From assembly GCA_964187785.1 (NCBI GenBank), contig OZ076409.1, positions 19,408,001-19,472,000 of the forward strand: a stretch of 64,000 bases of DNA, read 5' to 3'. The position numbers and the translations under genes are program-made. This document shows positions 16,542 to 61,559 of this stretch, in pieces. Below the pieces are notes generated by a model. The model was not told the DNA's origin. It ran no database searches and saw nothing but the letters and a program-made list of their open reading frames with translations. The stretch is from Amphiscolops sp. MND2022. Lineage: Eukaryota. The number at the start of each line of letters is the position of its first letter. Positions within the stretch are counted from its first letter, which is position 1.

Positions 16542-16647
16542 GTCTTTCACTTTCTGGAATCTATGAACAATTTCCCCTAAGAAAATTTGTCGTGAGACTA
16601 AAAACTTTTAGTGAAATTTTCACGGCTATACATAGTACCTTTTAAAG
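16542..16647 (+). repeat. 106-bp direct repeat, copy 1 (copy 2 at 34022-34127)
   Basis: gtctttcactttctggaatc...catagtaccttttaaag appears identical at both positions. Confidence 0.9.
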
Positions 16648-17234
16648 GCAGAGTCTCTGAGTTATGCTCAGTTCAGACTGATTGCATAAGTACAATGCCT
16701 CTCGGGACGAAAATTATCTGAAGGAATCATGGAACAGGTTTTCCTAGCTGAAAATATTTGATGAGATGGAAAATGTTCTAAAAAGAAGTCGCACAGTCCA
16801 TAAAAAATAAATGAAGGATCCTTTGGGCTCGAAATAGTTCTCTTTATAGTTCTCTTTTTAGGCAAATATAGAAATTTCACAGAGTATAAAAATCCAATGG
16901 TGGATCCTGTCACAGCCCCACTTGAGCTGTGAGTATTGCAGCAGAATCAACCCAGTCTTCGAAGAATAAATTAGGAAATGGAAAAGGAGAAATGAAAACA
17001 GAAAACCAGAAAACAATCAGTTCAATCCATACAACCTGAAATAATGGCGCTAAATAATATAATAATTAGAAGAAATTATATATTAATATTTATGTAGTTA
17101 TATATACTTACATACAGTGTACTAACCGGTATAAAGCTACTTGTGCAGTTAATAGTATTAATACGGTGCTATATATTTAATAGTAATACAATCACACCGC
17201 TCAGTAAGCGGCCTGAATGAATAATGGCGGAACT

Positions 17235-18090
17235 GCGGCCTGGCAACCGGCCTGAGATTTGCGCAGTGAAGCGGTGGCCTGGCGAGTGGCCTGAGAATGA
17301 AAGTGCTACGAATCAATCTCTAACACCAATTATGCTATTTTGTGAATACATGTAAACCTGTTGATGCGTTAAACGAGTATTAGAACAACGTTATACATGT
17401 AATTGTCCATATAAACAAGTATTGGAGCTAACTTTGAAATACCGATATACTGCGGCCCAGGACATGGCCTGAAATGTAAATCTATAAAATCCATTGTAGA
17501 AATGGAAATCGTTAATATTAATAGTGATTTTTTCTGCTCCTAATGAGCCTACCAATCAATGCCTGCAATCTCAAATGATGCCTGGAGATAAAGAAAGAAG
17601 TATGATGCTATTTTTACAGATAAACCATGTTCAAGTGCTAAATGAAGTAGACCGCGGCCTGAGACACGGCCTGAAATCTATTCTGACCAAATCCATCCTG
17701 GAATTGGAAATATCGATCCCCCTAACCATTTGTCCGCTCTCGCGAGGGAGCAGTGACGTAACACATGCAACAGTAAGCGGTATTGATTGATTACATGCAA
17801 TGTATGATGATTTTAACCATGTAAATGCAGTATTTAATTTGAGAACGCCAAGCTGCGGCCCAGACCTTGGCCTGGGATTAAATGTTCGATTTAATTTGTT
17901 TAATCTCCATAAATGATTTGTGTTGCATTGTTTAGAGTCAATTTCCACTCAACTAGATTGGGAAGAGACTCGAACCGTATTCTCGAGTTGATTCTAATCA
18001 CTGAATTGTTCGCTGTTGATATAATTAATCATTATTTTTCGGGAAATGATTTTATTTTGCCTCAACCGTTCCAGACCTCAGCCTGGGACC
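17235..18090 (+). promoter_or_regulatory. Array of GCGGCC-N8-GGCCTG motifs in the LTR
   Basis: Copies start at 17235, 17274, 17452, 17654, 17855 and (degenerate) 18066, separated by unrelated AT-rich DNA; mirrored in the 3' LTR. Function is inferred. Confidence 0.6.
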
Positions 18091-18309
18091 GAGCTTTCCC
18101 ATTTATACTCGAATTTGTGATTTTTAAGCTTTCATGAGTGAACTTTATGAGCTAATTTGTATTTCTTATTAAATAATCATCTCGCCGTGCAATATTTGAA
18201 CCAAATTAATTCGGGAAATTCTCATTTTTCCAATTTCCAATTTGTTGCTTTGTTCGATCATTTCGCTCTTTGGGCGTGCGCAGTGACTAATTTTTTTCAC
18301 ACTTTGTTC

Positions 18310-18700
18310 AGTTTCGGCGTCTTGAAAAGGCGGGGATTGGAGGCGAAGGGAAGCGGAGTCGCAACTCAGACAGGAAGTGGACGCGTGCTTTCCTCGGAAA
18401 GCATGAACAAACTGAGAGTCTGAGTTCGACAAAGCGGAACTGAACTTCCTGTTTCTCCGCTTTGGAGGGACGCCGGGCTGAATGAAGCGTGAAAGTGGTG
18501 CGGATTTTTCCCCGCTTCACGTGGGTGAAAAGTATATATACTTTGGAAGATTGAATAATTCCAGTGAAAAAATAGTCTTGATAATTTCAACAAGTTGATA
18601 ATTTGACAACTTTGTTAAAATCTTGAAATTCAATAATCGTTCGTTGTAAAACAACTTTACTCTTCACTTTGAAAATACAATTGAAGAATAAAAAAATCTC
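18310..18700 (+). promoter_or_regulatory. Putative LTR core promoter and polyadenylation signal
   Basis: GC-rich block with GGAAG and CACGTG sites, then TATA-like aaagtatatatacttt (~18529-18544) and AATAAA at ~18687 (ATTAAA in the 3' LTR), upstream of the gag ATG at 18761. Confidence 0.45.
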
Positions 18701-18760
18701 AATCTTTTCTCTCATATTCTCGTTGGATAGTCTCGAGCTTATAAATCTTAAACCCGAAAA

Positions 18761-20323
18761 ATGCCTGAAAGATCCTCTAAAAGAAAGGCCAGGAGAGATT
18801 CAGCGACTAGTTCACTAGGTGAGCCAGAAGCAACTAGTTTAAGAACTGAAAACGTTCCCAGTATTTCCGACCGAGACTTCTCTGAGCTATCTGAGAAAAT
18901 TGAAAAGTCAGTGACCAGAAGGATAAGAGATGCTGAAGTTGGGCAAAGGGAGATTTTGAAAATGATCGAGAATTTATCCTCAAAAATAGATTCACTGTCC
19001 GGTCAGTCGCCCAATTGTGAAAACCTCGCCTTAGATTCCGACGAGACCGAAAATCAAGCCTCAACATCAAGGCCATCCATACTGAAGGAGTTGCACCCAT
19101 CGCAGGGTCAACACATGGTGACAGGAATGTTCCCCCAAGCAGAAGTGCCGCCCCGATCATCAAGCCTACCGCCCCCCAACCAGAAATACCCGGACCACAT
19201 AGTGGAAAAGCTACTAGAATCGCTACAGAACGTAACCCAACAAAATATCGGGCTCCCTAGACTGCCAAAAGCGATGTCAACAACAATGCCTACTTTCAAA
19301 GGTAAAAATGACAAGTTTGAACACTTCGAAGACCTTTTTATGACTAGCCTCAAAGTGTATCCCAACATATCCGAAGAAGAGAAAATACACTATTTTCATT
19401 CCTTACTCAGGGATGACGCCCTGCAGACATACCGCAATATGACCGACACAACCCGTGCCAGCCTGGAGGACATCATAACAACCTTCAGACGACGATATGT
19501 CCGACCCCAATCTATCGCAACAGCCCGCTGCAAATGGAATCAGCTCTTTTTTGACCCATCCCAACAAACTTTTCAAGATTTCTTGGAGCAGTATCAAAAA
19601 CTGGCCCAAGAAGCATACGGAGATGACGCCCCCAAGTTCATTGAGACCTCCTTCTACGCCAAAATGCCGACCCACCTAAAACGAGTGCTAAACCAGGCAA
19701 GGTTAGAAACTGAATCGTACGAAACGATGGTCGAACACCTAGAAAGAGAGATGGAGCTAAACGGACTGTTGGCACCAAACGAGAGCAACATAACAGGAGT
19801 GCACCAAATTGACGTGCAAGATCCACAACAAGCTCCGAACCCCCCCAAACCGTCAGGACCATGCTACGGATGTGGGCAATCCGGCCATGTTGTCAAAAAT
19901 TGCAGAAAAGTAGCCCGCGAAGCTCGCAATCGGGGTAACAGAGTGCCCAACAAAATAGTTAACCCATGCGAAACCTGTGGCAAGAAAAGCCACACAACCG
20001 AAGAATGCTACTCAGGCGCCAACTGGGCAAATCGACCACAATGGTGGAAAACCCCCAAGGCCACGTCCTCAAACAGCATACCGCTACCGCCACAGTCACA
20101 AGGTCAGTATGCCAAAACCAATTTACCAGTGACCCAACCGCCATATCAAAATCAAGCAACCAGCCAAATGGGCTACCTACCTCCTCTTTCAATGACAACC
20201 CAACCCCAAACCCAAACTCAGTACCACAACCAGGCAACTGGCCACATGGGATTCATACCTCCCGCGCAAGTGACTACCCAACCTCAAACTCAACCTCAAA
20301 ACCAAACCCAGTCAAAAAACTAG
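18761..20323 (+). CDS. gag: Gag of Gypsy B (520 aa); the first ~118 codons lie inside the LTR
   Basis: Capsid-like region (MPTFKGKNDKFEHFEDLF...LRDDALQTY); two CCHC knuckles CYGCGQSGHVVKNC and CETCGKKSHTTEEC; Q/P/T-rich duplicated tail. Confidence 0.93.
   Translation: MPERSSKRKARRDSATSSLGEPEATSLRTENVPSISDRDFSELSEKIEKSVTRRIRDAEVGQREILKMIENLSSKIDSLSGQSPNCENLALDSDETENQASTSRPSILKELHPSQGQHMVTGMFPQAEVPPRSSSLPPPNQKYPDHIVEKLLESLQNVTQQNIGLPRLPKAMSTTMPTFKGKNDKFEHFEDLFMTSLKVYPNISEEEKIHYFHSLLRDDALQTYRNMTDTTRASLEDIITTFRRRYVRPQSIATARCKWNQLFFDPSQQTFQDFLEQYQKLAQEAYGDDAPKFIETSFYAKMPTHLKRVLNQARLETESYETMVEHLEREMELNGLLAPNESNITGVHQIDVQDPQQAPNPPKPSGPCYGCGQSGHVVKNCRKVAREARNRGNRVPNKIVNPCETCGKKSHTTEECYSGANWANRPQWWKTPKATSSNSIPLPPQSQGQYAKTNLPVTQPPYQNQATSQMGYLPPLSMTTQPQTQTQYHNQATGHMGFIPPAQVTTQPQTQPQNQTQSKN
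19116..19127 (+). promoter_or_regulatory. Primer-binding site of Gypsy B
   Basis: TGGTGACAGGAA abuts the LTR end; TGG pairs with tRNA CCA. The tRNA is not assigned. Confidence 0.75.
20314..20320 (+). promoter_or_regulatory. -1 ribosomal frameshift slippery site A AAA AAC
   Basis: Gag frame reads TCA AAA AAC TAG; pol is in the -1 frame; small hairpins follow (atcttc...ggagat; tgtcg...cgaca). Confidence 0.8.
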
Positions 20324-23300
20324 CTTTGCCACATCTTCAGTTTGGGGAGATTGTCGAAACCCGACATTTCACAACATCAGAACCCCCAAATACCTACGAC
20401 CACGAAGAAAATGACGAGCGACATGAAGAACCATCTCTCGACTGGCAGCGAAGATGGCAGATTCACAAGCTCAACAAACAAAATCGACAAAACATGACTA
20501 AAAAGGTCTACCCCCAATGGTACCTTGACAACCCAACCGACTACAGTACCCCAAAACGACCACTACCCGAAAGTACTGCCCCTGAAACCTACATACATGA
20601 CCCTGACTACAACTGCGACCCCTACCACAATCCCAAAATCTACGACCAAACGACTCTAACCTTTAAACAACAAGAGTGTACGCCATTTGAGGAATTTATC
20701 AAGAAAACTGGGATGAATATCTCGACAGAACCACGTCACAGACCGAAGACCGTCCAACCAGTCCCAGAATACGACCAGGACGCGGAACAAGTGACAGAAA
20801 TAATAGTCGACGAGTCGACTAACAAACCCAAGTCCATACTCAAAGCTCACGGATCACAAACAACGGCTCCACAATCGCCACCAAAAAACCAACCAGTTAA
20901 CCCAATCAGAGCCGGAAGAATACGATCCCCAACAATGGACGTGGCACCCGACTGCCACCAACATGAAAATCTCACCGGCAGGACCACGACTGAAGCCGTG
21001 GACCTGACCCAAACCACAACCAACACGGAGATAACAATCTCCACACCGCAAACAAGGAGAATAAAAAGGTCTCTACTCCTAGAGCCTCTCTCCTACAACG
21101 AGGCGTCGCCCTCACTCTCCCCCCCAAGAAGTCAGTCCGCAAATGAAGTCGAGGACCCTCGACCCATTACGACTGACGAAACGAACATGCAGTCTGAATC
21201 CCTACCCGGTGACGCAAATGGCACACCACTCCAGGACGTACCTAGGTCCTACCCCAACGACCAGGCTGCAGAATACCCGAATCAAGATCATCCAGGCAGA
21301 GGGACACGAGCCCCCCTCTCTTCCAACACCAGGCAGTCCGAAAATGAGACCGAGAACCCTCGTCCCATTACGATTGCCGCAACCAACATGCAATCTGCAT
21401 CCCCCTCAGGTGCTGTAAACGACACACCAACCCAGGACGAACCCCAGTCCTACCCCCTGGCGCAGATTGCAGAATACCTCACAAGAGACCCAATCACCAA
21501 AGAGGAATGCATCCCAATCTTCTCAGCGGTGACTCCTAAGAAAAAGAAGAAGATGCTATTCGCCCCAATGGACTTCCAGGACCTGACCCTGGACGCCCTC
21601 ATTGACTCTGGAGCGCTGGTCAACTGCATCTCCGAAACCGATTACAACAAAATCCTTCAGATGTCCCCCAAGGACATAGTCAAAGAAATGGAACCACCCC
21701 CGTTCAAACTCCAAGTCGCAAACGGCGACATTGAAGCCCCCACCAAAACAATAATCCTCCAATTTGAAATAGGGGACTGGAATTTCAAAGAGACGTTCAT
21801 TTATGCAAAACGACTAACAGGCCCAATACTTGGTCTCACATTCCTGAAAAACAACAGCGCCATTCTGGATGTAAGCCAAGGCCTACTCCACTTCCCCCAT
21901 CTAACGTACTCAATTGAAACCGACGAGTACACCCGCAACCGAAAGATGTACAAAGTACAAGTAAAGAATCCAATCACCATTCCTCTTGAAACAACCCAGA
22001 CAATCACCGCCTACACAGACATAACGTCTACCATCGGCACAACCGGTGTCATCAACCCAGCTACCAACCATTGTAGCGGTGACCCCCTAGTAGTAGCCAG
22101 CTCAATATCTACAGCCTCCAACAGGAAAATTGAGGTAAGGGTGACCAACACTACCCCCACACCCTACACAATAAAAAAGAACACGACGGTTGCTGAATTC
22201 AAAATTATGTCGCCCGAAGAAGCCAAAGAGCTCAAACCGCTCAACACCGCAGCACTAAAAGTACTCACGGAGGATGACTCAGAAGATGCGATACTATACA
22301 TCAACGAACTCCTGAAAACTTCGGACCAACCTTCCCAGAGTCAAAACTTTTGGTTCCCCACACCAGACAATCCTGGCGACCCTAGTACCCACACGCCGAT
22401 TCAAAGCAGAATACTGAGGGAAATCAAGGAACTGGAAGAGATCCAGAAACTGGACCCCAATAACAATGCTGAAGACCGAGAGGCATTCCTCAAAAACTTT
22501 AAATGGGATGATTCCCAATTAACAGAAAATGACCAAAAAGACATTGAGGAAATCTTGATAGAGTTCAATGACATTTTCGCGAGGCACCGACTAGACATCG
22601 GAATCAACCACGACTTTAAAATCAAGCTCACGCCAAAAACAGACGACCCAGTCTACTCGCAAAGCCTGCCTTGCCCCATTAACTTGAAAGAGGACTTGAC
22701 AGTGGAACTGGCATTAATGCATTACTTCGGGATTATAACAACCCTCCCGTTCAGCAAGTATGCCAGCCCAATTTTCGCTCAACGAAAGCCGAACGGCCGC
22801 CTACGGCTCCTAGTAGATCTCAGAAAGATCAACAACCTGATTTCCGATGATTACATCAATAACAATCATCCGGTCAGCACCCTCACGGACGCGGCACAAC
22901 ACCTCGCTGGCAAGAAGTTGTTTTGTAAGCTTGATTGCTCACAAGCTTACCACGTACTGCAGATGGCAGACCAGAAGTCAGTCCAACTCCTAGCTTTCAA
23001 CTTCGCCAGCAGGACGTTCGCGTACCTCAGGCTGGCCCAGGGACTGAGCCGCTCACTGTCATCCTTCTCAAGCTTCATGAGGGAGTATCTGGACAAAGCC
23101 ATAAAGGCGGATAAATGCGCCCAATACGTGGACGACATTGGAATCGCCACAAACACTCCTGAAGAGTTGAAAAACAATTTGAGAGAGGTCTTCCAATGCA
23201 TCCGCGCCGCAGGACTCCGGCTCACAATGGCGAAATGTCAGTTCGGCGCCAAGGAAGTCGAATTCCTTGGGCGGACGATCTCCCCATCAGGTGTAGCACC

Positions 23301-26109
23301 CCAGAGCCACAAGATACAGAAATACCTGCAAACACTCAAGTTCCCCCGAACGAAGAAAGGACTTCAACGATATATCGGATTTGTGAACTATTACAGAAAT
23401 TACATTCCTCGATTATCCGAGAAGATTGCCCCTTTCCACGAACTCATCAAATCTGACAAGCCTGCCAAAATCGACCAAGAGCTCATAGCAAACTTTGAGG
23501 CCATCAACAAGTCCTTAGACAACGCGTGCGGGCTCTACCTCAAACAGCCGCTGCCAAACCGGCAGTATGTCATGATGACTGACGCCAATTTCAAGAACGC
23601 AGGATACGCCTTAATGATCGAAGAGAACCCAGAACAGAAACTCACCTCCACCAAGAAAACCTATGCTCCTGTGGCATTTGGATCTAAAACTTTCTCTCCG
23701 TCACAATTGAAAATGTCAATTTATGCCAAGGAGTTTTTAGCCATCTATTTCGCCTTCATGGAGTATAGTCACATCTTGTGGGGTTCCTCCAAGCCAACCA
23801 TCGTCCTAACAGACAATAAATCAGTCACAAGGTTTTTTCAAACCAAAATGATTCCACCCTCCCTGTGGAACGCTTGTGATTTCGTGCTCCAATTCCATTT
23901 CAAAATCGCACATGTGCCAGGAAGGATGAACACCGCGGCAGACTTCCTCTCCCGATTGGACATCAGTCCCAAAGAAAAAGTCCTTCTCCAAATCAGAGAA
24001 GATATCCAGACAACACCCATCCAAGTGAACATCCAGTCCTCAGATATACATGAGGAGTACCAATTTTACTTCTTGCCAGAAGACGATTCCGAAACTGAGG
24101 AAGACATCTGGGAACGCAAACAGCGTGCCCGAAAGAAAATCTATAACCCCCAAGAACAACCAACCGATACTCAAACTGATACGACTGAACCAAAACCCCA
24201 AACGGAGAATCTACCCCTGGTCTGCAACAGCATCCAAGACCCGGAACAGAAACAAAGGCGCCAGCTATACAACGAAAACAGTTTTCCACGCAGCCTCAGA
24301 CCACACCAGGACCAGGACCCTGTCCTCAGAAATCTCAAGCTCAAAATATTGAAGGAGCCGTACGACACCCAACTCCTCAATGACGACCCCAGAGCAGCGA
24401 AGTACCTAGCCCAAGAAGATAGGATCATCATCAAAGACGGCCTCTTGTATAGACAATATTTTGGGGATACTGGGAAGGTCAAATATTTACAAGTGCTGCT
24501 CCCCAAACAACTGGTCAACGAATTCATACACCACCATCATGGCAAATATGGAAGACATCCGGGCATAGCCAAAACCATTCAACAATGCCGCGAGAAAAAC
24601 TACTACCCAGGACTTGCCGCCCGGATAGCCAACCATATCTCACAGTGTATGGAATGCGCCCAAACAAAGCGGACACCCAATAACACCATCACACCACCAC
24701 TAATCGACATGTCAAAAATAGCAATGGGACCCGAAGACGCACTCCAGATGGACATAGTCCCCTTCGATGACCCATCAGGAGGTTACACCGCAGTCATTAC
24801 AGCAATGGATGTCTTCTCCAGGTACCTATTCGCCTACAGTGTCGCTAGAATCGATACCAGAACGGTCACCAGAGTCCTAATGGACATCATCACCAGACAT
24901 TGCTATTTACCCACAACAATCATAACGGACAAGGGATCCCAATTCATATCAGAAGCGATGCAACAAACCACCGCTGCACTGGGAATCCAACTGAAACACG
25001 CCACCACGAAACACGCTCAGACGATCGGCATCCTGGAGAGGACTCACGCCTCCCTGAAGGAAAGCCTCAAAATAATGACAGGGGAACGGCGCACGATGTG
25101 GCATCAATTTCTACCGATGGTGGTATTGAATTACAATACCTCATACCACACATCACTAGGATGCGAACCCAGCAGAGTGTTTCACGGAAGAGTGCCCTAC
25201 AATGTACTCGACCTGAAATATTGACTCAAGCCACAGCCCCCTACCCCAATCAACCACGAGATAGCTGAGGGAGTGTTACAACAAACACAACAGATCCTCA
25301 ACCAAAGCCAGCAAGCTCTGATGCAGGCCTATGTTCGTCATAAACGCTATTATGACAGAAAGGCATCAGCAAACCCACTGGTAGTAAACGACTACTGCTA
25401 TGCATTGCATCCAAAGGCGCATAGCCAAGCGACAAAACTGCCGTTTCGGGAATACCTTTGGACGGGACCATATATCGTGGTCAAAACCCTACCCAATAAT
25501 AACTATTTAATCCGAAAACTCCAAACGAACCTCACCCAAATCCTGCACAGAATCAGACTACGACCATTCGCAAGCAGCCACAAACTGCCTGACATCTCAG
25601 TTGCGCCTAAAGATTTCCAGCAGGACACCGAAGTGCCTATACAGCACGATGACCTTTTCGCAATGGCTTGGCAGGAACTTCATCAAGAACACCCTACCCA
25701 CACCGCAAATAGTCAGCCACCCGAACCCGAAGTAATACCCCAAGCACAGGAACCAGATAATGACCCAACGTACCCCAGCCCTTCGAACCCCGACCCAGAG
25801 CATGGACCTGGAAGCAGTAACAACCACCCAGGAACCCAGACAGATGACCCAGACCTAGACACTGAAGATGAACCCGAAGATTGTCCACCCGTTCCTAAAT
25901 CCCCCCGAAAATCTCATTACAATCTCCGACGAAACCCAGCTTCAAATTGGAAACCAGATTTCGCATACTATAATGCAGTAGAAATAAACTCCGAAAATCC
26001 CGCAATTCAAAACGAAGGCCTGAGCGACGGCCCAGAAATACAGATCCTAGCAGACCTCGGCCCAGACGGGAGCCCAAGATCAGAAAATCAATGTGGCCCC
26101 AGGCTCTAA
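20320..26109 (+). CDS. pol: Pol of Gypsy B (PR-RT-RNase H-IN) with one in-frame TGA at 25222-25224
   Basis: Protease LIDSGA (~21600); RT KLDCSQAY and QYVDD; RNase H MTDANF, KEFLAI, LTDNKS; integrase H...HPG...CMEC, QMDIV, TDKGSQF, LERTH. ORF 25273-26109 continues in the same frame and contains the GPY motif (WTGPYIVVK). Confidence 0.93.
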
Positions 26110-26445
26110 CCTGGACGGCCGATCTACAACTGAATCTCAAATCTCCTCAACCTACAATGGCTTATCACTCTCTCACTCTACGACTTGCATGAAAACGATG
26201 CAGAGGCTAAATACTAAATTCAGACAATTGAGCCGCCTCGAACTTTCTGGTTTGCTTCACAACACCAGAGCATGGATTTTTACTTTTTTTCTCTTTCATT
26301 TTTTTCTTCATGGAACCAACTCGTGGAACCGCACGACGCTAAAAGAAACAAATAAATAACAAATCAGCAACCATATCAAGAATATCAATCAAACAAGTTC
26401 AAAAGAAGCTCATCAAAAGTTTTGTTTTTCCTCTCTCAACAGAGT

Positions 26446-29400
26446 TCAACAGGATTTCCCGTGCTGGCGGCCTTTCTTGTGACTGCCTTTCCCTTTTTCT
26501 ACAGACGAACCTGAAGTAGCCCGTTTGGAACCAGAAGCCTCAGCCAGAGACACAGTGTGAGCAACAGAAGCAGCACCAGAACATTCACCTCGGGAAGACA
26601 GCCCAGCCAACATACGTGACCTCCACTCCTCAACTTGACCAGAATAGTACGCATTATAGCACTGGAATAGACTCTCGAATATGTCCTTCCAAGCATGCCG
26701 ACTGACACCATCACAGACATCAAAGGAGGTACGCGCAAGGAACTGATGCCCAGCTGGCAGATTAACCTTTAATTCCTCCAGACACTCAACCGTTAACAGA
26801 TCATTCGAAACGAACTTCGGATGAAGGACAAAAGACTGCACTGCACTCAAACCAGACCGTATGGCAGAAACTGGCAGCCCGATCCCACTCATCGAAACAT
26901 CCACTGAAGGCATCACACTAGCAGCAGGACTCACAATCACTCGCAACAGACGGACAACTTGCTTCACATGACTCCGACACTGATAGACTTCACTGGCTTC
27001 CAAATATGTAAATATATCCGGGATTCGAGCAGGGTCGACTGACCGTTCGCGGAGTTCCACGACTAAGGACTTGAACTCATTAACAGACGACTCGCGATCT
27101 AAACCACTCAGATAACCACCCTCTTGGAGACAGGTCACTAAATCCTGGAACAGGTCCACGACATACTCCGCATCCCCGCACACCAACATATCCACGCTCA
27201 AGCAGCTGAGCGAGCGGGCAATACGAGAATTAGCATAATTGGACGAACCGAGCTGCTTCAAAAACTCCAACAGATATAGCTGACAATCTCGCAGGAACGA
27301 TCGGCGGGCAGCATCATCAAAGCCTCGCAATGCAGAAAGGATACTCGGTTCAGCCCGCAAACATTCAGAGGCAGTAACGTTAGCCCAGTTGGTCAAAGGC
27401 TGATCGATGTACTCGAACCAATTGTCGACTGATGGAAGCTGACTGACCTTCTTCACTTTACCCAGAAGACTCCAGTAAAAGAAGCAAAAATCAGTGAAAT
27501 TACGACAAGCGTAATCTCGGACATTTGGATCTTGCTGTTTCCTGAAGTTTGAGCAGTAGCATAACAGGATGACGTGCAATAAGGCCAGCCGAGGTAACCC
27601 CAAGCGGTCTGAACACAGCAAAGAGTCCAAATCAACCACGTTAACTGCCTTCTTCATCAACAGAACATCGTTAGACAAACAAAGTTTTACATCAGCCCAG
27701 TTATCCAGTAACTCCCGCAATACTTCACACAATGACTCAAAGGGCACGACTCCAGACTCAAGACACAGACGTAACTGAGGTAAATTCAATAACCACGCCT
27801 GATGCCGAACTCGTTTCAGGCGCTGTACTAGGTACTCCACAGTCGCAAATGGATCCACAGACCCAACACACACAAAACTGGATTCGTTGATCAGACCACG
27901 TAACAGATCAGGGCCAAAGGTCACGGAAACAATAGGCACAGGACGCCCTACTGAGCAACACCAGTCAACATAGGCATTGAAAAGGACCGGAGGACAGTCC
28001 ACGATGGTTGCAGGCCCTCGACTCGTTGAAACAAGCGACAAAACTCGCGACAGACACTGCATTTCGGCCTCACAAGAAACTGCGCCACGGTCCTCGTCAA
28101 AGAGATGCACTTCGCGCAGGCAGTCGTCGAGACAGCAACGGACGATGCATTTCACACCGGAGCATGAAGCCTGCAGCGCCAAGCTAAACGGGCTGTCACC
28201 TAGCCACGACTTCACGCGACGAAGCACACGGGGATACAAGGTCTGCACAAGGACCACCAGAGTCTCTGTTTTGCTCCAGGTCACTGAAGCGTACGGGCTC
28301 TCGACAGGCAAAGTCGTCCGGAACTGATTCCATAACCGACGCAGGAACACTTGAGACCCACCGCTCCTCAGCAGCTCGAACAAACATCCCACCAGAGTAG
28401 TTGGAGGCACATTGGAAGGGACACCAACCAATGCATCCACCTCGTCTTCGATGAATTTATTCATTTTGCCCAGTATCACGGGGGGCGTTTCCTCAATTTC
28501 AGCACGCTGCTCAGTTGACAGGTCTGCAACCCGGATGGGATCAAACTTTTCAGTGTAGATCACATCCTCGTGGTCGTAACGGTACCGACGATCTTTGAGG
28601 TAGTGGCCTTTGCACTTGAAGTGCCTCCAGATTCCACGAGCACCACGAGATAAAAAGGAAACGTCTTTCTGACAAATTGAGCAGTTGAATCCATTGGGGC
28701 TCTTGTCGTTCCGTCGGCTGACGAATAGCCTGGGGATAGCATGATCACTCATGGCCTTTGTTAACACGTGCCGTTCCGTCTGCTTCTTAGCACGTTCCTC
28801 CTCTCGGGCCAACAATTTCTCCTTCTTTGCTTCTAAAGGGTCAAGCACTCGGCCAGGATTGTTAGCATCGATGCCTTTCCCTTTCAGTAGCCGGGATAAC
28901 TCTTCGAACTCTAAATACAACAACCGGTGATCAAACAAATGACACAAAGAAAACCAAACCAATCACACAATCAACCTACAGACAAAGAGAGTAACACCAA
29001 AGAAACAAACATAACAGTCAGCAGAACAGAACACAACCCAAAACAAGAAAAAAATATGCACTCACGCTTTGTCAAGTTCTTTGTCTCCTTCAGTGCCTCA
29101 GTACGTTCTGCTCGGGCAGCACTCCGGGCCAGCATTACACACTGAGCAGCTGACATCATCATCGGCGACCCAGGGGGAACAGGTGCCAAGCCAACTAATA
29201 ACAAAAACAACACATGTTACCCACCGTAAAGGATACAGAAGCTAACCTAAAGCCGGCCAAACAACTACAGAACCAAGGAAGCGACGACATGAAGTACAAA
29301 ACAAATACAGTTCAACATACCAGTATCCCAATCGTTGTAGACAACTGAAGCTTCCACCCCTACAGCAGCTCGGCCATGCTGAGTCCGGGTATGCCCGGAA

Positions 29401-30306
29401 GTCTCTGCGGGAAACACTGAGACAGCGTCACTTTCGGGGGCAGGGGTACCAACAGCATCCTCACAGATGAAAACATCACTGTCCTCAGAAGAATGAACCC
29501 TCGGCGCAGTCCCAGGCTCAACGACTACAAAAAAAGCAACATATGAAACACACGGAACTCAGAAAATTGTCCCTAAAAATGCAATACTCTGATACATGTA
29601 TTCATATGACACAAGAAAGAAGACAGAATACCTACTTTCAAGAGTACGTGAAGCAGAAATCATGGGGGGCACATAGTCATCACCAGAGCTGTCATACAGA
29701 GGCGGTGGCCTGGAGACTGACCCAGAAACAATGTCTGCCAATCGAACCCGTTTTGCTGAGTGCACACTCCCAGTTGACAACACACGACTCGTCCGCTGCT
29801 TTTTCTTACTCCGGGATTTAGTACGACGACCGGGGACATAGTCACCATCGGCTTCATCATCAGTAACTACAGAAAGTAGATGAAAAAAGAACGCGTTCAC
29901 TAACGATGCCTAGAAAGGGCCGGCCACCCATTAATTTCTAGAAAAGCTTACCTTTCTTCTTTGCTAAGTAGTCAATGTCATGGCGATCATCGCTCGTAGC
30001 AGAATGGAAGGAACCGGTCGCCACGCAACTGCCAATCTCTTCATCATCGTCGCCACTAGGAACATCTTTCTCGCCAAAACCTGGCACAGGTAATCCACCA
30101 GCTTCTTCCTCACCTGTTTCTTCAACTTCGTCCCCATGGCCTGCATCACCCGCCTCATCATTTTCATCCTTGTCACCACCATCCTCCACTCTCTCCTCTC
30201 CACGAACCACTGACTCGACGACTGACTCCGCCTCAGCCTCATTCTCTTTCAGTCCAACCTCCTGACTCTGATACAGTAAGACATTATCTTCCTCTGTGGA
30301 ACTCAT
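26446..30306 (-). CDS. Antisense five-exon gene inside Gypsy B; 1127-aa hAT-transposase-like zinc-finger protein, apparently catalytically dead
   Basis: Exons 30306-29952, 29866-29636, 29524-29321, 29194-29066 and 28910-26446. Donors GTAAGC, GTAGGT, GTATGT, GTGAGT; acceptors ttctgtag, tttttgtag, gttattag, gtatttag. All introns are phase 1 and the 3384-nt spliced frame is open. Zinc finger CSIC...HFKCKGH at 28683-28603. Confidence 0.85.
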
Positions 30307-30530
30307 ACTTCGCAGAACTTTCTGAAAAATACCCGAATACAACAAAACAATGGAGATGTGGCGTAAAATAATGGAATTAGTAATACTAGAAGTTATCTAC
30401 TATATAAGGAGAGTTGTTCAGTCTGCCAGCTGAACAATTCACGGAGTTGACACAAACTGTGTGAACAAATTTTCCAAGCGAAGCAAATCAGTTGTACTGA
30501 AAACTGATTGACACTCAGCCCGCTATTATA

Positions 30531-31130
30531 ATGAATCATTCCATTTCAAATAACCAAGCAGACGAAGACGTTTTTATTCTTGAACGAGATCAACAGCCAA
30601 CACCGACTGAACAAAGGCCCAGTACTCCACCGCCTAATTATCGTATCATCAACCCGACGCAGCCTGCTATTGTTTATGAAATAGTCAAGACGGAAGACAT
30701 ACACGTAGTCCTTGTTCACGAACAACCAATTGTAAACGCAATTAACGTCGAAAATGAACAAGGAATAATACGAAGGTTCACCACAGAAAACCCGGTTATC
30801 CCAGATGACGAATTCATGAGCCCCACCAGACGATTCAATCACGAGGACCAAAATAGCCCTGATTATTTCGTCGACAGCCCTATGAGCTCAATAAGCGAGG
30901 CCGACAGCAGCTCAGAAGGCTACTGGTCAGGCAGCAGTTGGGAAAGCAGCTCTTCATGGCGATCATACGATTCAATGAGAGATGACCTCACCACTTTGTT
31001 TGATACACCGATACGATCCATTTCCCAACTTCTCCTTCCTGAGGGAACTGGGCAACGAAGCCGAGGACTGTCACAGCCCCACTTGAGCTGTGAGTATTGC
31101 AGCAGAATCAACCCAGTCTTCGAAGAATAA
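30531..31130 (+). CDS. Accessory sense ORF of Gypsy B (199 aa, acidic and Ser/Pro-rich), ending inside the 3' LTR
   Basis: ATG-initiated open frame; TATATAAG at 30401-30408 upstream; last ~20 codons in the LTR; no signal peptide or transmembrane segment. Confidence 0.6.
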   Translation: MNHSISNNQADEDVFILERDQQPTPTEQRPSTPPPNYRIINPTQPAIVYEIVKTEDIHVVLVHEQPIVNAINVENEQGIIRRFTTENPVIPDDEFMSPTRRFNHEDQNSPDYFVDSPMSSISEADSSSEGYWSGSSWESSSSWRSYDSMRDDLTTLFDTPIRSISQLLLPEGTGQRSRGLSQPHLSCEYCSRINPVFEE

Positions 31131-33276
31131 ATTAGGAAATGGAAAAGGAGAATTGAAAACAGAAAACCAGAAAACAATCAGTTCAATCCATACAACCTGA
31201 AATAATGGCGCTAAATAATATAATAATTAGAAGAAATTATATATTAATATTTATGTAGTTATATATACTTACATACAGTGTACTAACCGGTATAAAGCTA
31301 CTTGTGCAGTTAATAGTATTAATACGGTGCTATATAATTAATAGTAATACAATCACACCGCTCAGTAAGCGGCCTGAATGAATAATGGCGGAACTGCGGC
31401 CTGGCAACCGGCCTGAGATTTGCGCAGTGAAGCGGTGGCATGGCGAGTGGCCTGAGAATGAAAGTGCTACGAATCAATCTCTAACACCAATTATGCTATT
31501 TTGTGAATACATGTAAACCTGTTGATGCGTTAAACGAGTATTAGAACAACGTTATACATGTAATTGTCCATATAAACAAGTATTGGAGCTAACTTTGAAA
31601 TACCGATATACTGCGGCCCAGGACATGGCCTGAAATGTAAATCTATAAAATCCATTGTAGAAATGGAAATCGTTAATATTAATAGTGATTTTTTCTGCTC
31701 CTAATGAGCCTACCAATCAATGCCTGCAATCTCAAATGATGCCTGGAGATAAAGAATGAAGTATGATGCTATTTTTACAGATAAACCATGTTCAAGTGCT
31801 AAATGAAGTAGACCGCGGCCTGAGACACGGCCTGAAATCTATTCTGACCAAATCCATCCTGGAATTGGAAATATCGATCCCCCTAACCATTTGTCCGCTC
31901 TCGCGAGGGAGCAGTGACGTAACACATGCAACAGTAAGCGGTATTGATTGATTACATGCAATGTATGATGATTTTAACCTTGTAAATGCAGTATTTAATT
32001 TGAGAACGCCAAGCTGCGGCCCAGACCTTGACCTGGGATTAAATGTTCGATTTAACTTGTTTAATCTCCATAAATGATTTGTGTTGCATTGTTTAGAGTC
32101 AATTTCCACTCAACTAGATTGGGAAGAGACTCGAACCGTATTCTCGAGTTGATTCTAATCACTGAATTGTTCGCTGTTGATATAATTAATCATTATTTTT
32201 CGGGAAATGATTTTATTTTGCCTCAACCGTTCCAGACCTCAGCCTGGGACCGAGCTTTCCCATTTATACTCGAATTTGTGATTTTTAAGCTTTCATGAGT
32301 GAACTTTATGAGCTAATTTGTATTTCTTATTAAATAATCATCTCGCCGTGCAATATTTGAACCAAATTAATTCGGGAAATTCTCATTTTTCCAATTTCCA
32401 ATTTGTTGCTTTGTTCGATCATTTCGCTCTTTGGGCGTGCGCAGTGACTAATTTTTTTCACACTTTGTTCAGTTTCGGCGTCTTGAAAAGGCGGGGATTG
32501 GAGGCGAAGGGAAGCGGAGTCGCAACTCAGACAGGAAGTGGACGCGTGCTTTCCTCGGAAAGCATGAACAAACTGAGAGTCTGAGTTCGACAAAGCGGAA
32601 CTGAACTTCCTGTTTCTCCGCTTTGGAGGGACGCCGGGCTGAATGAAGCGTGAAAGTGGTGCGGATTTTTCCCCGCTTCACGTGGGTGAAAAGTATATAT
32701 ACTTTGGAAGATTGAATAATTCCAGTGAAAAAATAGTCTTGATAATTTCAACAAGTTGATAATTTGACAATTTTGTTAAAATCTTGAAATTCAATAATCG
32801 TTCGTTGTAAAACAACTTTACTCTTCACTTTGAAAATACAATTGAAGATTAAAAAAATCTCAATCTTTTCCCTCATATTCTCGTTGGATAGTCTCGAGCT
32901 TATAAATCTTAAACCCGAAAAATGCCTGAAAGATCCTCTAAAAGAAAGGCCAGGAGAGATTCAGCGACTAGTTCACTAGGTGAGCCAGAAGCAACTAGTT
33001 TAAGAACTGAAAACGTTCCCAGTATTTCCGACCGAGACTTCTCTGAGCTATCTGAGAAAATTGAAAAGTCAGTGACCAGAAGGATAAGAGATGCTGAAGT
33101 TGGGCAAAGGGAGATTTTGAAAATGATCGAGAATTTATCCTCAAAAATAGATTCACTGTCCGGTCAGTCGCCCAATTGTGAAAACCTCGCCTTAGATTCC
33201 GACGAGACCGAAAATCAAGCCTCAACATCAAGGCCATCCATACTGAACGAGTTGCACCCATCGCAGGGTCAACACA
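31069..33276 (+). repeat. 3' LTR of Gypsy B (contains a truncated copy of the gag 5' end, 32922-33276)
   Basis: Direct repeat of 16908-19115, followed by TSD GATCC. Confidence 0.97.
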
Positions 33277-34021
33277 GATCCTTCAGTCTAATTGTTTTGT
33301 AGATCAAGTGAAGTTGTAAAATTTTTACAGCGTGGAAACTCGACCCTTTTGAATTTCCCTCCAGCAAACAATGGAAACTTATAACTTTGAGGATCTGCTT
33401 TGGTGACTACGACAGGGCTGAAAGAAGAATATGACAAAAAACTACTGCAATTGGAGGCTCTATGTTTGTTTAAGCGCCGGCATAAAATATGAAAATGTAA
33501 TTCCGAAAATAACGCATAAAAGTCATAGCGATTGTGTTCACACTATGTTAACACTGTTTAGTTTGGAACAACATTTAAAATGTTAAAATGTGTGCTTTTA
33601 CTGCTCGAGCTTATTAAGTGTCCGGAGGAAATTAATTTGTGTGAAATTTGTTCCAATATGACACATAAGCAAATACATTTTGTATGCTATTTTTCAGCAA
33701 TGCAACATTTCTTCTGGATTCTTTCAATAATAATCGAATTCTTTCAATCCAATAACTAACGAAAATGGATTCCAGGTTTGATTTTCAGACTCAGAGAGCC
33801 CGGATAACATCAAAGCAATCTTTTTCAACTTTTTTGAGCTTCGAGATAGAAAAAATGACAAATTCTTTTTGTTTCATTTCAATATTCCGGAAGTGTGAGA
33901 TATTTGAACTTGAAATTACTGTTCTGATGCTTTTCGAAGCTATGAGACTATATTTTTGTCTTGCTCAATTGCCAATGTTTTAGCCAACTCTTCTTCTGTA
34001 GTTTTCTAGAGATTCATTGAG

Positions 34022-34127
34022 GTCTTTCACTTTCTGGAATCTATGAACAATTTCCCCTAAGAAAATTTGTCGTGAGACTAAAAACTTTTAGTGAAATTTT
34101 CACGGCTATACATAGTACCTTTTAAAG
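34022..34127 (+). repeat. 106-bp direct repeat, copy 2
   Basis: Same sequence as 16542-16647. Confidence 0.9.
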
Positions 34128-50705: not shown

Positions 50706-50845
50706 TTTAGACGTCATTTCCCTGTTTAGACGTTATTCCCGTTTTTTAGACGTTATTCGCTAATTTTTCAGTTTAGATGTTATTCCTTTAGACGTTCTTT
50801 CCGTGGACTTTTAGACGTTATTCCTTAGACGTCATTCCGTCCTCT
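50706..50845. repeat. Cluster of TTAGACGT(T/C)ATTCC motifs, probable MITE end
   Basis: About 7 copies within 140 bp. Confidence 0.6.
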
Positions 50846-52444
50846 AGTGACTTGTAACCCTCAAAGCAGACGATGGAATCCTTCGACTTGCCTTCAATGC
50901 TGGAGTCCCCTGGACTCTACCGAACCGACGGCAAACGCACAGACGGTGTTACTTTAATTCCTTGGGAAAAGGTAAACACTTGTTATGGGTTTCAAATGTT
51001 GTCGATGCCCTCACACCCAGTAGCTTGAATCAAGACTCCTTAGGCAACCCCGGAACCACCGCCACCAATATAGAATCACGTAAACAAAAACCAAGCATTG
51101 TTTGACCTTTCAGCCGTTGTCACCGGAAGTACAATGTTGTTTAAGTGAAAGTGGGGAAATATTCTTAACGCGGCTCTGTTATATGTTCTGTTGTCGCTCT
51201 GTGATCAGCGAGCTGGCTGTTTTTTGAAGCAACGTTTTTCATTGGCTCTGCACATTAGAAATGCGGCATGTGTTCTAGGAACAGTGAGCGACAGAGATGC
51301 TTTCGATGAAATTTATTTTTAGTATTGATTACCGACACTGGCTTTCTTTGCAACTCGCCAATAAGCATGATCCGTCTCCACTACAGAGAGTTCAAACACA
51401 ATAGAATTCAAACTACATTGGTCAATTTCAATTTTTTGCGATTCAAACCCAATTTCAAACATTTGGTTCCAAAATGCAGTGCTGAAACCCGTCCAAAAAT
51501 CCTGCCTCGATGCCTGTCGTTTTCCTGTTCAAACTCTCATTTAGGAGGAAAAGAGGGCACATAAGATGTCAAATTCTTTTACCCTGACGCTGTTTAGAGC
51601 ATGTCAAAAACTGAAATTTAGTTTCCATATAAATTGGTTCAATTGATACCAATTTCCATTGTCGCATAACTTTGTCACGATTCTGTGAAATGTTAGACCC
51701 ATTCGGAAAAAATTGAAGGTTAGACGGAGTTACTTTGATCCAATCGGGATTTTTTTGTTAAACTCTTACGTGTTCTGTCAATTTCAAACTCAAACTACGC
51801 AACGGGGTTTGGGGTCAAATAAAAAGACAAGTTGGAACTGATCTTAAACTCAATCTCAAAAAAGTCAAGCACTTGATATCCCTGATCCATTATTATTGAG
51901 GGCAATCGACACCTTTTTGAATTTGTATGTATCCTAACAATCGAGTTTCCGAACAACCAATTTGTGCAATGGTCCTGAGAAGGTCACACGTTCGTCTATC
52001 AAAAGAAGAAGATCTTGCGCCTACTTTCAAGCAACAAGAATTATTTTATTTCTGAAACCGGTTAGAAACATCCTGTAAATTGAAACACCTCACATATATC
52101 AATACAGTTTGGGGTATTCCTAGAGACTCGATTATTCATTTGAAGTACATAGATGTCCCTAGGATGTCCGGACTTGCGTTCTGTTTCGTTAAAGGGTTGT
52201 ATAATTGTAATCAATTATGTCCAGTGATCTGTTAAATCCAATCGGTCACAACTACATTCGACTGAAAAACGTCTGCGGATAAATGATCAACAATTTTACA
52301 ACGGGACGGTTTACATGGTCTTTCTTGGACGAAGAGTGCTGGTCGCTTCTCACGTCTTGCTACTCTCAATTCTCTTATGAAGCAGACGCTAGAATGTCTC
52401 TACTTGCCTTCAATGCTCGAGCTGCGTGGACTGTACCAAACTGA

Positions 52445-53909
52445 TGACAAAGTTCTCAATTTTTTTGATGATGGCAAAGACTTTTTGTCTCAAAACCTTA
52501 ACAAACCTTGTGAATGTAATTCTCGAAGGAAAAGTACCTTTCGAATTTCGGCCGTACTTCTTTGGTGCGAAACTAATTACGCTAAAAAAACCTGATGGAG
52601 GACTTCGTGTCCAGTTTGATTTTCGGATTCCTTCCAGGATCTGATTGACAGTTTGGAGTCGAAAATAAACTTATGGCATCTTGACGTTGGAAATCTAATT
52701 GATGAGTACAAAACCGTTTTGAAAGATCTCAAAAAATAGTTGAAGCGGAAAAAACGCTGGGACTCAAAATTAAACCCACGAAATGCGAGTTTTTTTCCCT
52801 GGGGACATCACTGAAAAACGCCGATTGACAATTTTAGCATCTTTTCAAAAACTTTGCCCCGGGAACAAAAGACCAAAGAAAGATGAATTTATCATTCTTG
52901 GTTCACCGCTCGGCCCGAAATCACAAGCAGACTTATTGGAAAAGAAAATCAATGAACTGGAAAATGTTAATGGAATTGTTGAAATACTAGATGCGCACTA
53001 TGGTTTTTTTATGTTGAAAAATTGCTTCAGTCTGCCAAAGTTGTTGTACTTCCTGAGAACAAGTACATGTTTTAAAAATCCAGCTCTCTTGGAAAAGTAT
53101 GACAAAACCGTACGCAACGGGCTTTCCAAAGTGTGTAATGTGAACTTCGACGATATTTCGAGTACTCAGCTGGCTCTGCCCGCTGAAATGGGTGGTCTTG
53201 GGGTGTCATCCGCATCTTTATTAGAACTTCACGCCTTTTTAGCTTCAGCTTTTGGTGCGAGTGACTTTCTCACGACTATTTTCTTGGGAACATTTGAAGC
53301 TGTTTCATTTACAAAAGCGCTTGAGAAATTGTTGAGTTTGACAAATGAAAAGGAAAGTCCACTCGATGGAACCCAGAAAAATTGGACACAACCTGTCTTC
53401 GTCAAAACCGCCCAGAATTTGATTTCTAGAATGGATGACAAACGTTCGAAAGTTTTCAACGCTCATCAAGGTACATTCGGGTCTCGATGGCTGAATGTCG
53501 TTCCTTGTAAGAACCTAGGCCTGAAACTTGATGATCAGCAACTTCGGATTTCAATTGGTTTACGTCTCGGAGCCAACATTTGTAATGCGCATACGTGCCA
53601 GTGTGGTAAAAGAGTTGAACGGGACGGCTTACACGGTCTTTCTTGCACCAAGAGTGCTGGTCGCTTCTCACGTCATGCCACTCTCAATTCTCTCATAAAG
53701 CAGACGTTGGTATCTCTCGACTTGCTTTCAATGCTCGAAACGCGTGGACTGTACCGAACCGATGGCAAACGCCCAGACAGTGTTACCATGATTCCTTGGG
53801 AAATGGGTAAACAGCTGGTGTGGGATGTCACGGTTGTGGATGCTCTTGCACCCAGTCGCCTGAATCACGGCTCTTTATGAAACCCGGGAACCACCGCCAA
53901 CGAGGCCGA
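52445..53909 (+). pseudogene. CRE-like non-LTR retrotransposon RT/REL fragment, copy 1
   Basis: KKPDGGLR, ILGSPLG, LPAEMGGLG, CQCG...HGLSC zinc knuckle, RHATLN, KRPD, WDVTVVD (restriction-enzyme-like, REL, endonuclease). Confidence 0.85.
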
Positions 53910-55389
53910 TGGGAAAAGGTAAACACTTGTTATGGGTTTCAATTGTTGTTGATGCCCTCACACCCAGTAGCTTGAATCAAGACTCCTTAGGAAACCCCGG
54001 AACCACCGCCACCGATGTAGAATTACGTATACAAAAACCAAGCATTGATTGACCTTTCAGCCGGTGTCACCAGTAGTACAATGTTCTTTAAGTGAAAGTG
54101 GGGTAATATTCTTAACGCGGCTCTGTTATATGTTCTGGTGTCGCTCTGTGATCAGCGAGCTGGCTGTTTTTTGAAGCAACGTTTCTCATTGGCTCTGCAC
54201 ATTGGAAATGCGGCATGTGTTCTAGAAACAGTGAGCGACAGAGATGCTTTCGATGAAATTTATTTATAGTATTGTTTACCGACACTGGCTTTCTTTGCAA
54301 CTCGCCAATAAGCATGATCCGTCTCCACTACAGAGAATTCAAACACAATAGAATTCAAACTACATTGGTCAATTTCATGTTTTTGCGATTCGAACCCAAT
54401 TTCAAACATTTGGTTCCAAAATGCAGTGCTGAAACCCGTCCAAATATCCTGCCTCGATGCCTGTCGTTTTCCTGTTCAAACTTTCATTTAGGAGGAAAAG
54501 AGGGCACATAAGATGTCAAATTCTTTTACCCTGACGCTGTTTAGAGCATGTCAAAAACTGAAATTTAGTTTCCATATAAATTGGCTAATTTGATACCAAT
54601 TTCCATTGTCGCATACTTTTGTCACGATTCTGTGGAATGTTAGACCCATTCCGAAAAATTTGAAGGTTAGACGGAGTTACTTTGATCCATTCGGGATTTT
54701 TTTGTTAAACTCTTACGTGTTCTGTCAATCTCAAACTCAAACTACGCAACGGGGTTTGGGGTCAAATAAAAACCCAAGTTGGAACTGATCTCAAACTCAA
54801 TCTCAAAAAAGTCAAGCACTTGAAATCCCTGATCCAATATTATCGAGGGCAATCGACCTTTTTGAATTTGTATGTATCCTGACAATCGAGTTTCCGAACA
54901 ACCAATTTGTGCAATGGTCCTGAGAAGGTCACACGTTCGTCTATCAAAAGATGAGGATCTTGCGCCTACATTCAAGCAACAAGAATTATTTTATTCCTGT
55001 AACCTGTTAGAAACATCCTGTAAATTGAAACACCTCACATATATCATTACAGTTTGGGGTATTCCTAGAGACCCGATTTTTCATTTGAAGTTTATAGATG
55101 TCCCTAGGATGTTCAGACTTGCGTTCTGTTTTGTTAAAGGGTTGTATAATTGTAATCAATTATGTCCAGTGATCTGTTAAATCCAATCGGTCACAACAAT
55201 ATTCGACTGAAAAACGTCTGCGGATAAATGATCAACAATTTTACAACGGGATGGTTTACATGGTCTTTCTTGGACGAAGAGTGCTGGTCGCTTCTCACGT
55301 CTTGCTACTCTCAATTCTCTTATGAAGCAGACGCTAGAATGTCTCTACTTGCCTTCAATGCTCGAGCTGCGTGGACTGTACCAAACTGA

Positions 55390-61340: not shown

Positions 61341-61559
61341 AAAAAGTTTTTTTTTCAAAAAACTCTATCATTGCAGCTTCAAAAAAAATTCTACCGGTCG
61401 ACTGCGATAGTGGCTGGTATGAGTAGTTTGTTGGTTGTCATTTTGTTACTGGTGTACTGGGATAGTGGACCACGGGTGTGTGTCTTCTCCCCCCAACATG
61501 ATGGTACACATGGCATTTGATTGATGACGAAGATCCATGATATCTGATAGAGAAGAAAA

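Follow-up and report, generated by a model that had tools for sequence, protein, structure and literature searches.

A conserved, hAT-derived and very probably inactive accessory gene lies antisense in a Ty3/Gypsy retrotransposon of Amphiscolops sp.

Introduction

Additional open reading frames (ORFs) in antisense orientation are known from Ty3/Gypsy retrotransposons of plants and fungi, namely Retand with its TRP28 domain (PF04195), maize Grande with gene23, rice RIRE2 and Boty of Botrytis (PMC7264820, PMC11963269). In the cited sections of these reports the products are proposed to be nuclear DNA-binding regulators which are expressed from a promoter of their own (PMC7264820, PMC11963269). 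The same sections describe no similarity to other transposable elements (TEs), and an origin of the antisense ORFs by TE insertion was therefore not supported (PMC7264820, PMC11963269). The domain of the Retand-type ORFs nevertheless bears the Pfam name 'transposase 28'. A domain is shared between the Ogre/Tat elements of plants and Mutator elements, and ZBED, DREF and DAYSLEEPER are hAT-derived transposases that have been domesticated by their hosts. FHY3/FAR1 is described as a transposase turned into a transcription or chromatin factor in the section cited here (PMC13547354). VANC proteins, which are encoded in DNA transposons, resemble the cellular protein MAIN and not a transposase, according to the cited part of that source (PMC13547354), and their action is reported to depend on a short motif clustered in their own element (cited part of PMC6719617). 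The bdelloid ORF3s are of other types, and the word 'transposase' does not occur in the cited main text (PMC5408684). Our literature search, with most subscription journals and Repbase outside its coverage, found no previous description of an LTR element with a hAT-derived gene.

Here we describe such a gene in a 64-kb window (the whole stretch of 64,000 nucleotides of Amphiscolops sp. DNA that was analysed). Like the Retand-type ORFs, as far as the cited sections describe them, it is antisense, located between pol and the 3' LTR, and kept in most copies. In contrast to them, it lacks TRP28 (PF04195, no match at E up to 1), its full-length hAT origin can be traced by fold and profile, and it has 4 to 6 predicted introns. 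With the hAT transposases (Hermes and the donor group described below) it shares the finger, dimerisation region, RNase H fold, helical insertion and C-terminal helices in a common order. Unlike them, it has lost both catalytic Asp residues, the CxxH motif and the Arg of the RW motif, it has no terminal inverted repeats (TIRs), it bears additional acidic N-terminal exons, and it moves as cargo of a retrotransposon. Likeness to VANC is an analogy only: both are accessory proteins encoded by a TE, and the motif clustered in the VANC element recalls the LTR repeats described below, which are clear in eight of 15 LTR stretches. However, no similarity between VANC and the window gene was seen, and methylation of the present element looks light. 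The gene also differs from host-domesticated transposases, in that its new owner is another transposon and it exists in many copies. We conclude that the window gene would work like the Retand-type antisense accessory genes, although it does not belong to their family and is not an active hAT. Conserved, derived from a hAT and very probably inactive, this accessory gene provides a traceable example of a whole hAT transposase which has been disarmed and is strongly selected in a large retrotransposon clade. Transposase domestication, known for hosts, is thereby extended to a transposon as owner.

Results and Discussion

Carrier element

A complete Ty3/Gypsy element spans positions 16908-33276 of the window (Table 1). 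It has two LTRs with TG...CA ends, a target duplication, gag, and pol in the order protease, reverse transcriptase (RT), RNase H (RH) and integrase, the domains being assigned with Pfam. The LTRs are 2208 bp each and 99.5% alike, with 11 differing sites, and the carrier is a young Ty3/Gypsy element. The gag gene opens about 118 codons inside the LTR (18761-19135), likewise in other families, and the primer-binding site at 19116 falls within the gag reading frame. A gag stub is also borne by the 3' LTR (32913-33302). No clear polypurine tract is present directly 5' of the 3' LTR (31045-31068). Outside the LTRs, an identical stretch of 106 bp lies on either side of the element (16542-16647 and 34022-34127). 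Elsewhere in the window, positions 50800-61700 are occupied by an array of ~3.3-kb repeats of 95-99% identity with internal 1.6-kb sub-repeats.

The stop codon located after the integrase core (25222-25224) is private to the window copy, being absent from all 42 other scorable copies of the 44 examined. Read-through at this position was considered and rejected on the basis of that count.

Table 1. Features of the carrier element and of its antisense gene, in window coordinates.
Feature	Position	Strand	Remark
5' LTR, 2208 bp	16908..19115	+	target duplication GATCC at 16903-16907
11 same-strand GGCCYR hexamers in U3	17210..17874	+	candidate binding sites
gag	18761..20323	+	Pfam; start within LTR
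pol: protease, RT, RNase H, integrase core	19963..25224	+	ends at stop private to window copy
Integrase C-terminal part	25225..26109	+	same frame as pol, past private stop
Exon 5	26446..28910	-	last exon, holds hAT-derived part
D688, probable place of catalytic Glu	26899..26901	-	low-confidence alignment
V321-D322, place of second catalytic Asp and following Gly	27997..28002	-	
Q264, place of first catalytic Asp	28171..28173	-	high-confidence alignment
C2H2 zinc finger C94, C97, H114, H120	28603..28683	-	
Exon 4 (predicted)	29066..29194	-	
Exon 3 (predicted)	29321..29524	-	
Exon 2 (predicted)	29636..29866	-	basic NLS-like run
Intron 1	29867..29951	.	conserved better than exons; possible cis element
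Exon 1 (predicted)	29952..30306	-	start codon at 30306; acidic, 37 D+E in 118 residues
Gap between head-to-head genes, 224 bp	30307..30530	.	TATA-like word near 30400; candidate two-way promoter
Second accessory ORF, 199 aa	30531..31130	+ (sense)	ends inside 3' LTR
3' LTR	31069..33276	+	target duplication GATCC at 33277-33281

Structure of the antisense gene

The antisense ORF sits between the integrase tail (ending at 26109) and the 3' LTR (from 31069), where the minus strand has an open frame of 838 codons at 26446-28962. An earlier reading of this DNA, made from the letters alone (the sequence-only reading), had given the protein the range 26446..28910. Its upper end agrees with the splice acceptor of the last exon, at which AG is present in 19 of 20 related loci; four upstream coding exons, adding ~306 N-terminal residues, were omitted from it. 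Conservation predicts a gene of five exons and 1127 amino acids (1128 codons including the stop) with all introns in phase 1. Each of the seven upstream splice sites, like the start codon, is kept in 18-20 of the 20 related loci, a set which includes one rearranged tandem copy (L037). In between-family comparisons, identity of introns 2-4 goes down to 45-68%, and in all four upstream exons dN is well below dS. Exon 5 encodes a coiled coil, the C2H2 finger, the hAT-derived dimerisation region, the RNase H fold with its helical insertion, and a basic tail.

Intron 1 has a conservation of 78-94% between families, compared with 62-71% for the neighbouring exon. On the genomic strand it contains two short palindromes and a short stem, and the same stem is folded by most copies. 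It is possible that this stretch is a packaging or dimerisation signal.

The second accessory ORF (30531-31130) is present in 19 of the 20 related loci at 57-99% and contains CxxC. No Pfam match was found for it, and its dN/dS between families is ~0.1-0.2. Its head-to-head arrangement with the antisense gene across only 224 bp suggests an internal two-way promoter.

Derivation from a hAT transposase

The AlphaFold model of the antisense protein, built from 25 sequences, has a pLDDT of 72.9, the finger region being low (pLDDT 43-71). In the model, an RNase H core of which three strands and one helix are seen precedes a long helical insertion. In Foldseek the top 11 rows are all Hermes (best E 5e-4), and superposition with VIA-align of model residues 222-718 on Hermes 135-609 yields a Z of 13.9 with an rmsd of 5.2 over 398 aligned residues. 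A structure search of 48,161 chains, independent of Foldseek, returned Hermes (Z 13.0) as the sole chain at Z >= 8, after which come ISCth4 (6.7), RAG1 (6.5) and Tn5 (5.9). The fold check against Hermes suggested by the sequence-only reading thus came out as it had anticipated. Clusters of the hAT/ZBED5/FAM200 type in the ESM Atlas (0.81-0.91) are taken as leads only.

General profile libraries did not recover this relationship. Pfam gave no hAT, BED (zf-BED) or TRP28 match for the ORF and 25 family members, the C-terminal dimerisation domain PF05699 had no match in the 25 members, and the PDB searched by sequence profile gave no match. The family HMM had no match among the Ac-like and DUF659-like hATs of the own genome, and a search of this genome with PF14291 was without match, as were its controls. 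Long open frames of Ac-like hAT transposases (610-697 residues; L091-L094) are also present in the genome.

A suitable group of hATs, hereafter the donor group, was reached through the DGPNV motif named in the sequence-only reading, for which the genome gave 4 matches and the control 0; one match then yielded metagenome loci, of which the best 80 of 104 were used. The group is characterized by the motifs MDGPNVNW, CxLH, RW and VE[RS]GFS and by the ends CAGGG...CCCTG. Among its 21 long ORFs, two of which are one contig counted twice, the first Asp is present in 19, the second Asp in 21, CxLH in 21, RW in 21 and the Glu motif in 18. End pairs of the form CAG[GA]G...C[CT]CTG, 11 in number, were found among 84 loci. 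Only one of the 11 has a target duplication (6 bp), and naming of the group thereby failed. The hAT5 and hAT6 groups are distinguished by target duplications of 5 or 6 bp in the cited part of PMC12730594; the donor group may be hAT5 or hAT6.

HMMs connect the antisense family and the donor group in both directions, with a best score of 40.8 bits. Profile comparison with hhalign covers 629-678 columns from the finger to the C-terminal helix, at 97.4% in local and 98.7% in global alignment and E of 1e-11 to 2e-15, whereas one reversed and nine block-shuffled controls reach 1.4% at most. The profile check proposed earlier fails with Pfam and succeeds at 97-99% with the donor group. A single donor-group sequence as query matched the finger alone (1-4%), and a single-sequence structure model of a donor-group protein has a pLDDT of 34, too low for use. 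Other hATs were considered as the match. A profile of 48 long proteins of the Tip100/ZMYM1-like group, similar in depth, gave only 0.4% and was rejected, as was the Ac-like group at 0.1%, the latter being a weak test with a shallow profile of four proteins.

Every motif quoted by the sequence-only reading is present in the frame 26446-28962 and in hAT order. Alignment with the donor group bears out its 'LAP'-like segment. The C2H2 finger is intact and lines up with the donor finger in hhalign; the label 'BED', in the sense of the Pfam zf-BED profile, finds no match. The finger ligands are retained in 82-95% of distinct sequences (C94 58/63, C97 47/57, H114 57/63, H120 60/63). The C-terminal dimerisation region is aligned by profile at low confidence only and falls inside the structural match to Hermes.

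Judged by sequence, the nearest relatives outside the family are ordinary TIR hATs, which share ~14% identity with it, far below the LTR-borne homologues. Taken with the fold, these comparisons indicate that the antisense gene almost certainly derives from a hAT transposase.

Active site

Position 264 of the antisense protein is the place of the first catalytic Asp. The window sequence has Gln here (~28173), as had been read from the letters, and none of 80 rows has Asp; Glu is present in 11 of 22 distant sequences. For the second Asp, the motif TIVDCPPV had been proposed. The place is right and CxxH has gone, but the Asp in this motif is most likely not the catalytic one: the family pattern x-G-[CA]-[SP], with G at position 322 in 47 of 65 distinct sequences and D in 4, assigns the second Asp to V321 and makes D322 the probable equivalent of the Gly in 'DG'. 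hhalign instead sets the second Asp on 322 with low confidence. Only one of 77 rows has Asp at 321, apparently a decayed fragment, and Glu is present there in 5 of 23 distant sequences.

No conserved equivalent of CxxH is found in the antisense family, and RW is also lost, both motifs being present in all 21 long donor-group ORFs. The place of RW is P407-F408 by spacing, as the sequence-only reading had it, or A389-W390 by hhalign (with two 18-column gaps), and Arg is absent either way. The same reading was probably mistaken in regarding the catalytic Glu as absent. Its position probably corresponds to D688, where the acid would have been kept: Asp or Glu occurs in 67 of 91 distinct sequences (20/20 close, 25/27 intermediate and 22/44 distant). 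One acid alone cannot form the two-metal site of DDE enzymes. The interval 26050-31100 contains only short or low-complexity inverted pairs and no donor-type end pair that could represent TIRs flanking the gene. The loss of catalysis claimed earlier is borne out by the counts at both Asp positions, and we regard it as very probable that the protein has no transposase activity. Similarity to hATs is present, a complete DDE triad was not seen, and the closest homologues are in LTR elements and lack both Asp residues.

Linkage, selection and exchange

Databases contain 35 relatives of the ORF at 44-98%. In the own genome (1.07 Gb), all 100 scored matches, which are the best-scoring copies only, lie at 77-100%, and 82 of them are without stop in the matched 417 residues; from the large library the best 150 of 819 matches were examined. 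For linkage, 44 loci were hand-picked across the ranked lists (20 of 100, 4 of 95 and 20 of 277 rows), L105 being left out of the count since only its LTR was covered. In 42 of the 44 loci the antisense gene lies tail to tail behind the integrase, down to a pol identity of ~54-55%. The exceptions are L026, with gag and an intact antisense gene and no pol, and L150, which appears to be cut by a nested element. None of the 44 is inside a DNA transposon and none is a lone host gene. A search for homologues in other Gypsy families had been proposed by the sequence-only reading; together with fold and profile, this linkage upholds its view that a class II transposase was captured and kept by a class I element.

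Antisense proteins fall into three levels of likeness to that of the window (71-98%, ~50% and ~26-35%), at which the pol identity is 86-98%, 72-78% and 54-61%, respectively. The hAT part is in three pieces in a distant clade (L099, L102, L106, L108, L135, L138, L142 and L149), with breaks that are absent from the clade of the window and a GT donor at the first break in 8 of 8 loci. Ordinary splicing of genomic RNA cannot account for such a loss or gain of introns in an antisense gene. Two database proteins match the genome at only 30-33% and 32-39% and are broken at the same place; sequence comparison suggests that other species probably carry the family. It was not found in the metagenome contigs searched, and a search for longer proteins gave family members only.

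The antisense gene is under strong purifying selection. Between families, dN/dS is 0.04-0.08 in 10 of 28 pairs, values that are rough with dS near 2; three near-identical copies give 0.17-0.31, and 15 pairs with saturated dS were not computable. Among the parts tested, constraint is strongest on the finger (dN 0.02-0.12). In comparison, dN/dS of RT-RH is mostly 0.01-0.04, and the antisense protein changes 5-8x faster than RT at the amino-acid level. It is very likely that the protein is useful to the element.

The gene has also been exchanged. In L024 the stretch matching 26250-30400 is only 42-88% alike while both flanks are 96-100% alike, and the confinement of divergence to this stretch implies that the whole antisense gene was exchanged as one unit. 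L024 and L025, as well as L139 and L140, have near-identical RT and very different antisense genes, which points to repeated cassette exchange. The RT tree (27 rows, without the distant clade owing to a length filter) is nearly unresolved and has one supported split in common with the antisense tree.

Possible function and its alternatives

From the origin, the loss of both Asp residues, the position, the selection, the splice sites and the cassette exchange observed above, we infer the following course of events. An ancestor of this Ty3/Gypsy clade would have taken in a hAT DNA transposon, reversed, behind pol. Transposon ends and catalytic site would then have decayed, and the fold would have been retained as an accessory gene with its own introns. 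As the antisense introns are not spliced from the genomic RNA, the gene may travel intact with each new copy. It would be read from an internal promoter at 30307-30530, and the protein might be nuclear and dimeric, binding paired direct repeats of its own LTR via the finger and the DNA-binding surface of the transposase. The acidic N-terminal extension may set transcription or chromatin state of the element, somewhat more probably upwards (activation or relief of silencing) than downwards. To the central part of this proposal, that the protein is a dimeric, LTR-binding regulator of its own element with an acidic effector tail, we give about even chances. The sequence-only reading had listed anti-silencing, LTR transactivation and integration tethering as possible roles.

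Candidate sites for such a protein are seen in the LTR. The window LTR has 11 GGCCYR hexamers in 665 bp, ten of which form five pairs 12 bp apart; the motif was picked after looking at the LTR, and its count in the whole window is only mildly high (68 versus 53.4 +- 7.3). A peak at 12-bp spacing exceeds 30 shuffles in eight of 15 LTR stretches, six of which use GGCCYR. The remaining two (L249 and L252) use the hexamer GGGACG in the same 12/27/39-bp geometry, and the finger helix of their clade is a different one. Of the other stretches, L104 and L251 are marginal at most and five are without signal; the L250 and L251 elements carry the antisense gene, with no repeat signal in L250 and at most a marginal one in L251. 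LTRs of the distant clade have 11-bp pairs that are marginal at most. L024 combines an LTR 96% alike to that of the window with an antisense gene only 80% alike, which suggests that fine-scale lock-and-key matching is not required. Parallel divergence of repeat and gene could also be produced by shared descent alone.

Alternatively, the protein could assist integration, joining the pre-integration complex and promoting nuclear entry or tethering to chosen chromatin or DNA ends through the end-binding surfaces of the transposase. Such a helper would suit the retention of the whole transposase scaffold beyond the finger, the third acidic position that is often kept and the basic NLS-like runs, and a similar role has been raised for the plant antisense ORFs in the cited part of PMC7264820. 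We consider it unlikely, however: L026 keeps the gene intact without pol, and the acidic, disordered N-terminus seems more like that of a transcription factor. Anti-silencing blind to sequence, in which a small-RNA or histone pathway is blocked by protein contact and the LTR repeats bind host factors, is likewise improbable in our opinion. Change 5-8x faster than that of RT and exchange between families would be in keeping with it, both being often seen in conflict genes, and several LTRs are without repeats. The constraint on the finger nevertheless points to nucleic-acid binding, and dN/dS is on average purifying and not positive. A change of hexamer with the spacing kept would also argue against a host-factor site, which is expected to keep its sequence.

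A Rev-like RNA-binding protein, acting in export, dimerisation or packaging and possibly at the intron 1 stretch, would account for the conservation of this intron above its neighbouring exon and for the common short stem. The low stability of the stem (-7 to -16 kcal/mol) and the DNA-binding nature of the parent fold make this role quite improbable. It appears very improbable that an altered active site still supports nuclease or transposase activity. The acid at 688 in all close and most intermediate sequences and the Glu found at 264 or 321 in some distant ones are what such activity would predict, but the residue at either Asp position varies without constraint (Q, R, E, V, L), neither CxxH nor the Arg of RW is left, half of the distant sequences lack the acid at 688, and no TIR pair flanks the gene. 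Hardly credible is a mere passenger, be it a DNA transposon nested in the element and in decay or an antisense transcript with an incidental frame. Position and orientation are those of a nested insertion, from which the gene is likely to have arisen; yet the low dN/dS, the retention of frame and splice sites despite saturation of synonymous sites and the presence in three deep clades are not what a decaying insert would show.

Returning to the LTR-binding regulator, its furthest extension is that the dead hAT transposase reads the LTR arrays of its own clade, array and protein changing together, and that the gene is traded between families as a cassette. We put this forward tentatively, as a possibility that is somewhat less than probable. 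If true, the gene would parallel the VANC system in a retrotransposon while differing from it in origin, and it could help to explain the many copies of the clade in this 1.07-Gb genome. The locus offers a ready test system, with a candidate protein, candidate sites which differ between clades, and natural cassette swaps. As for the mode of action, CpG transitions among 19 close copies are ~1.8x the other C/G transitions, and CpG o/e is 0.8-1.0. With so small an excess the element appears to be lightly methylated, and we do not favour a demethylase role in the strict VANC sense.
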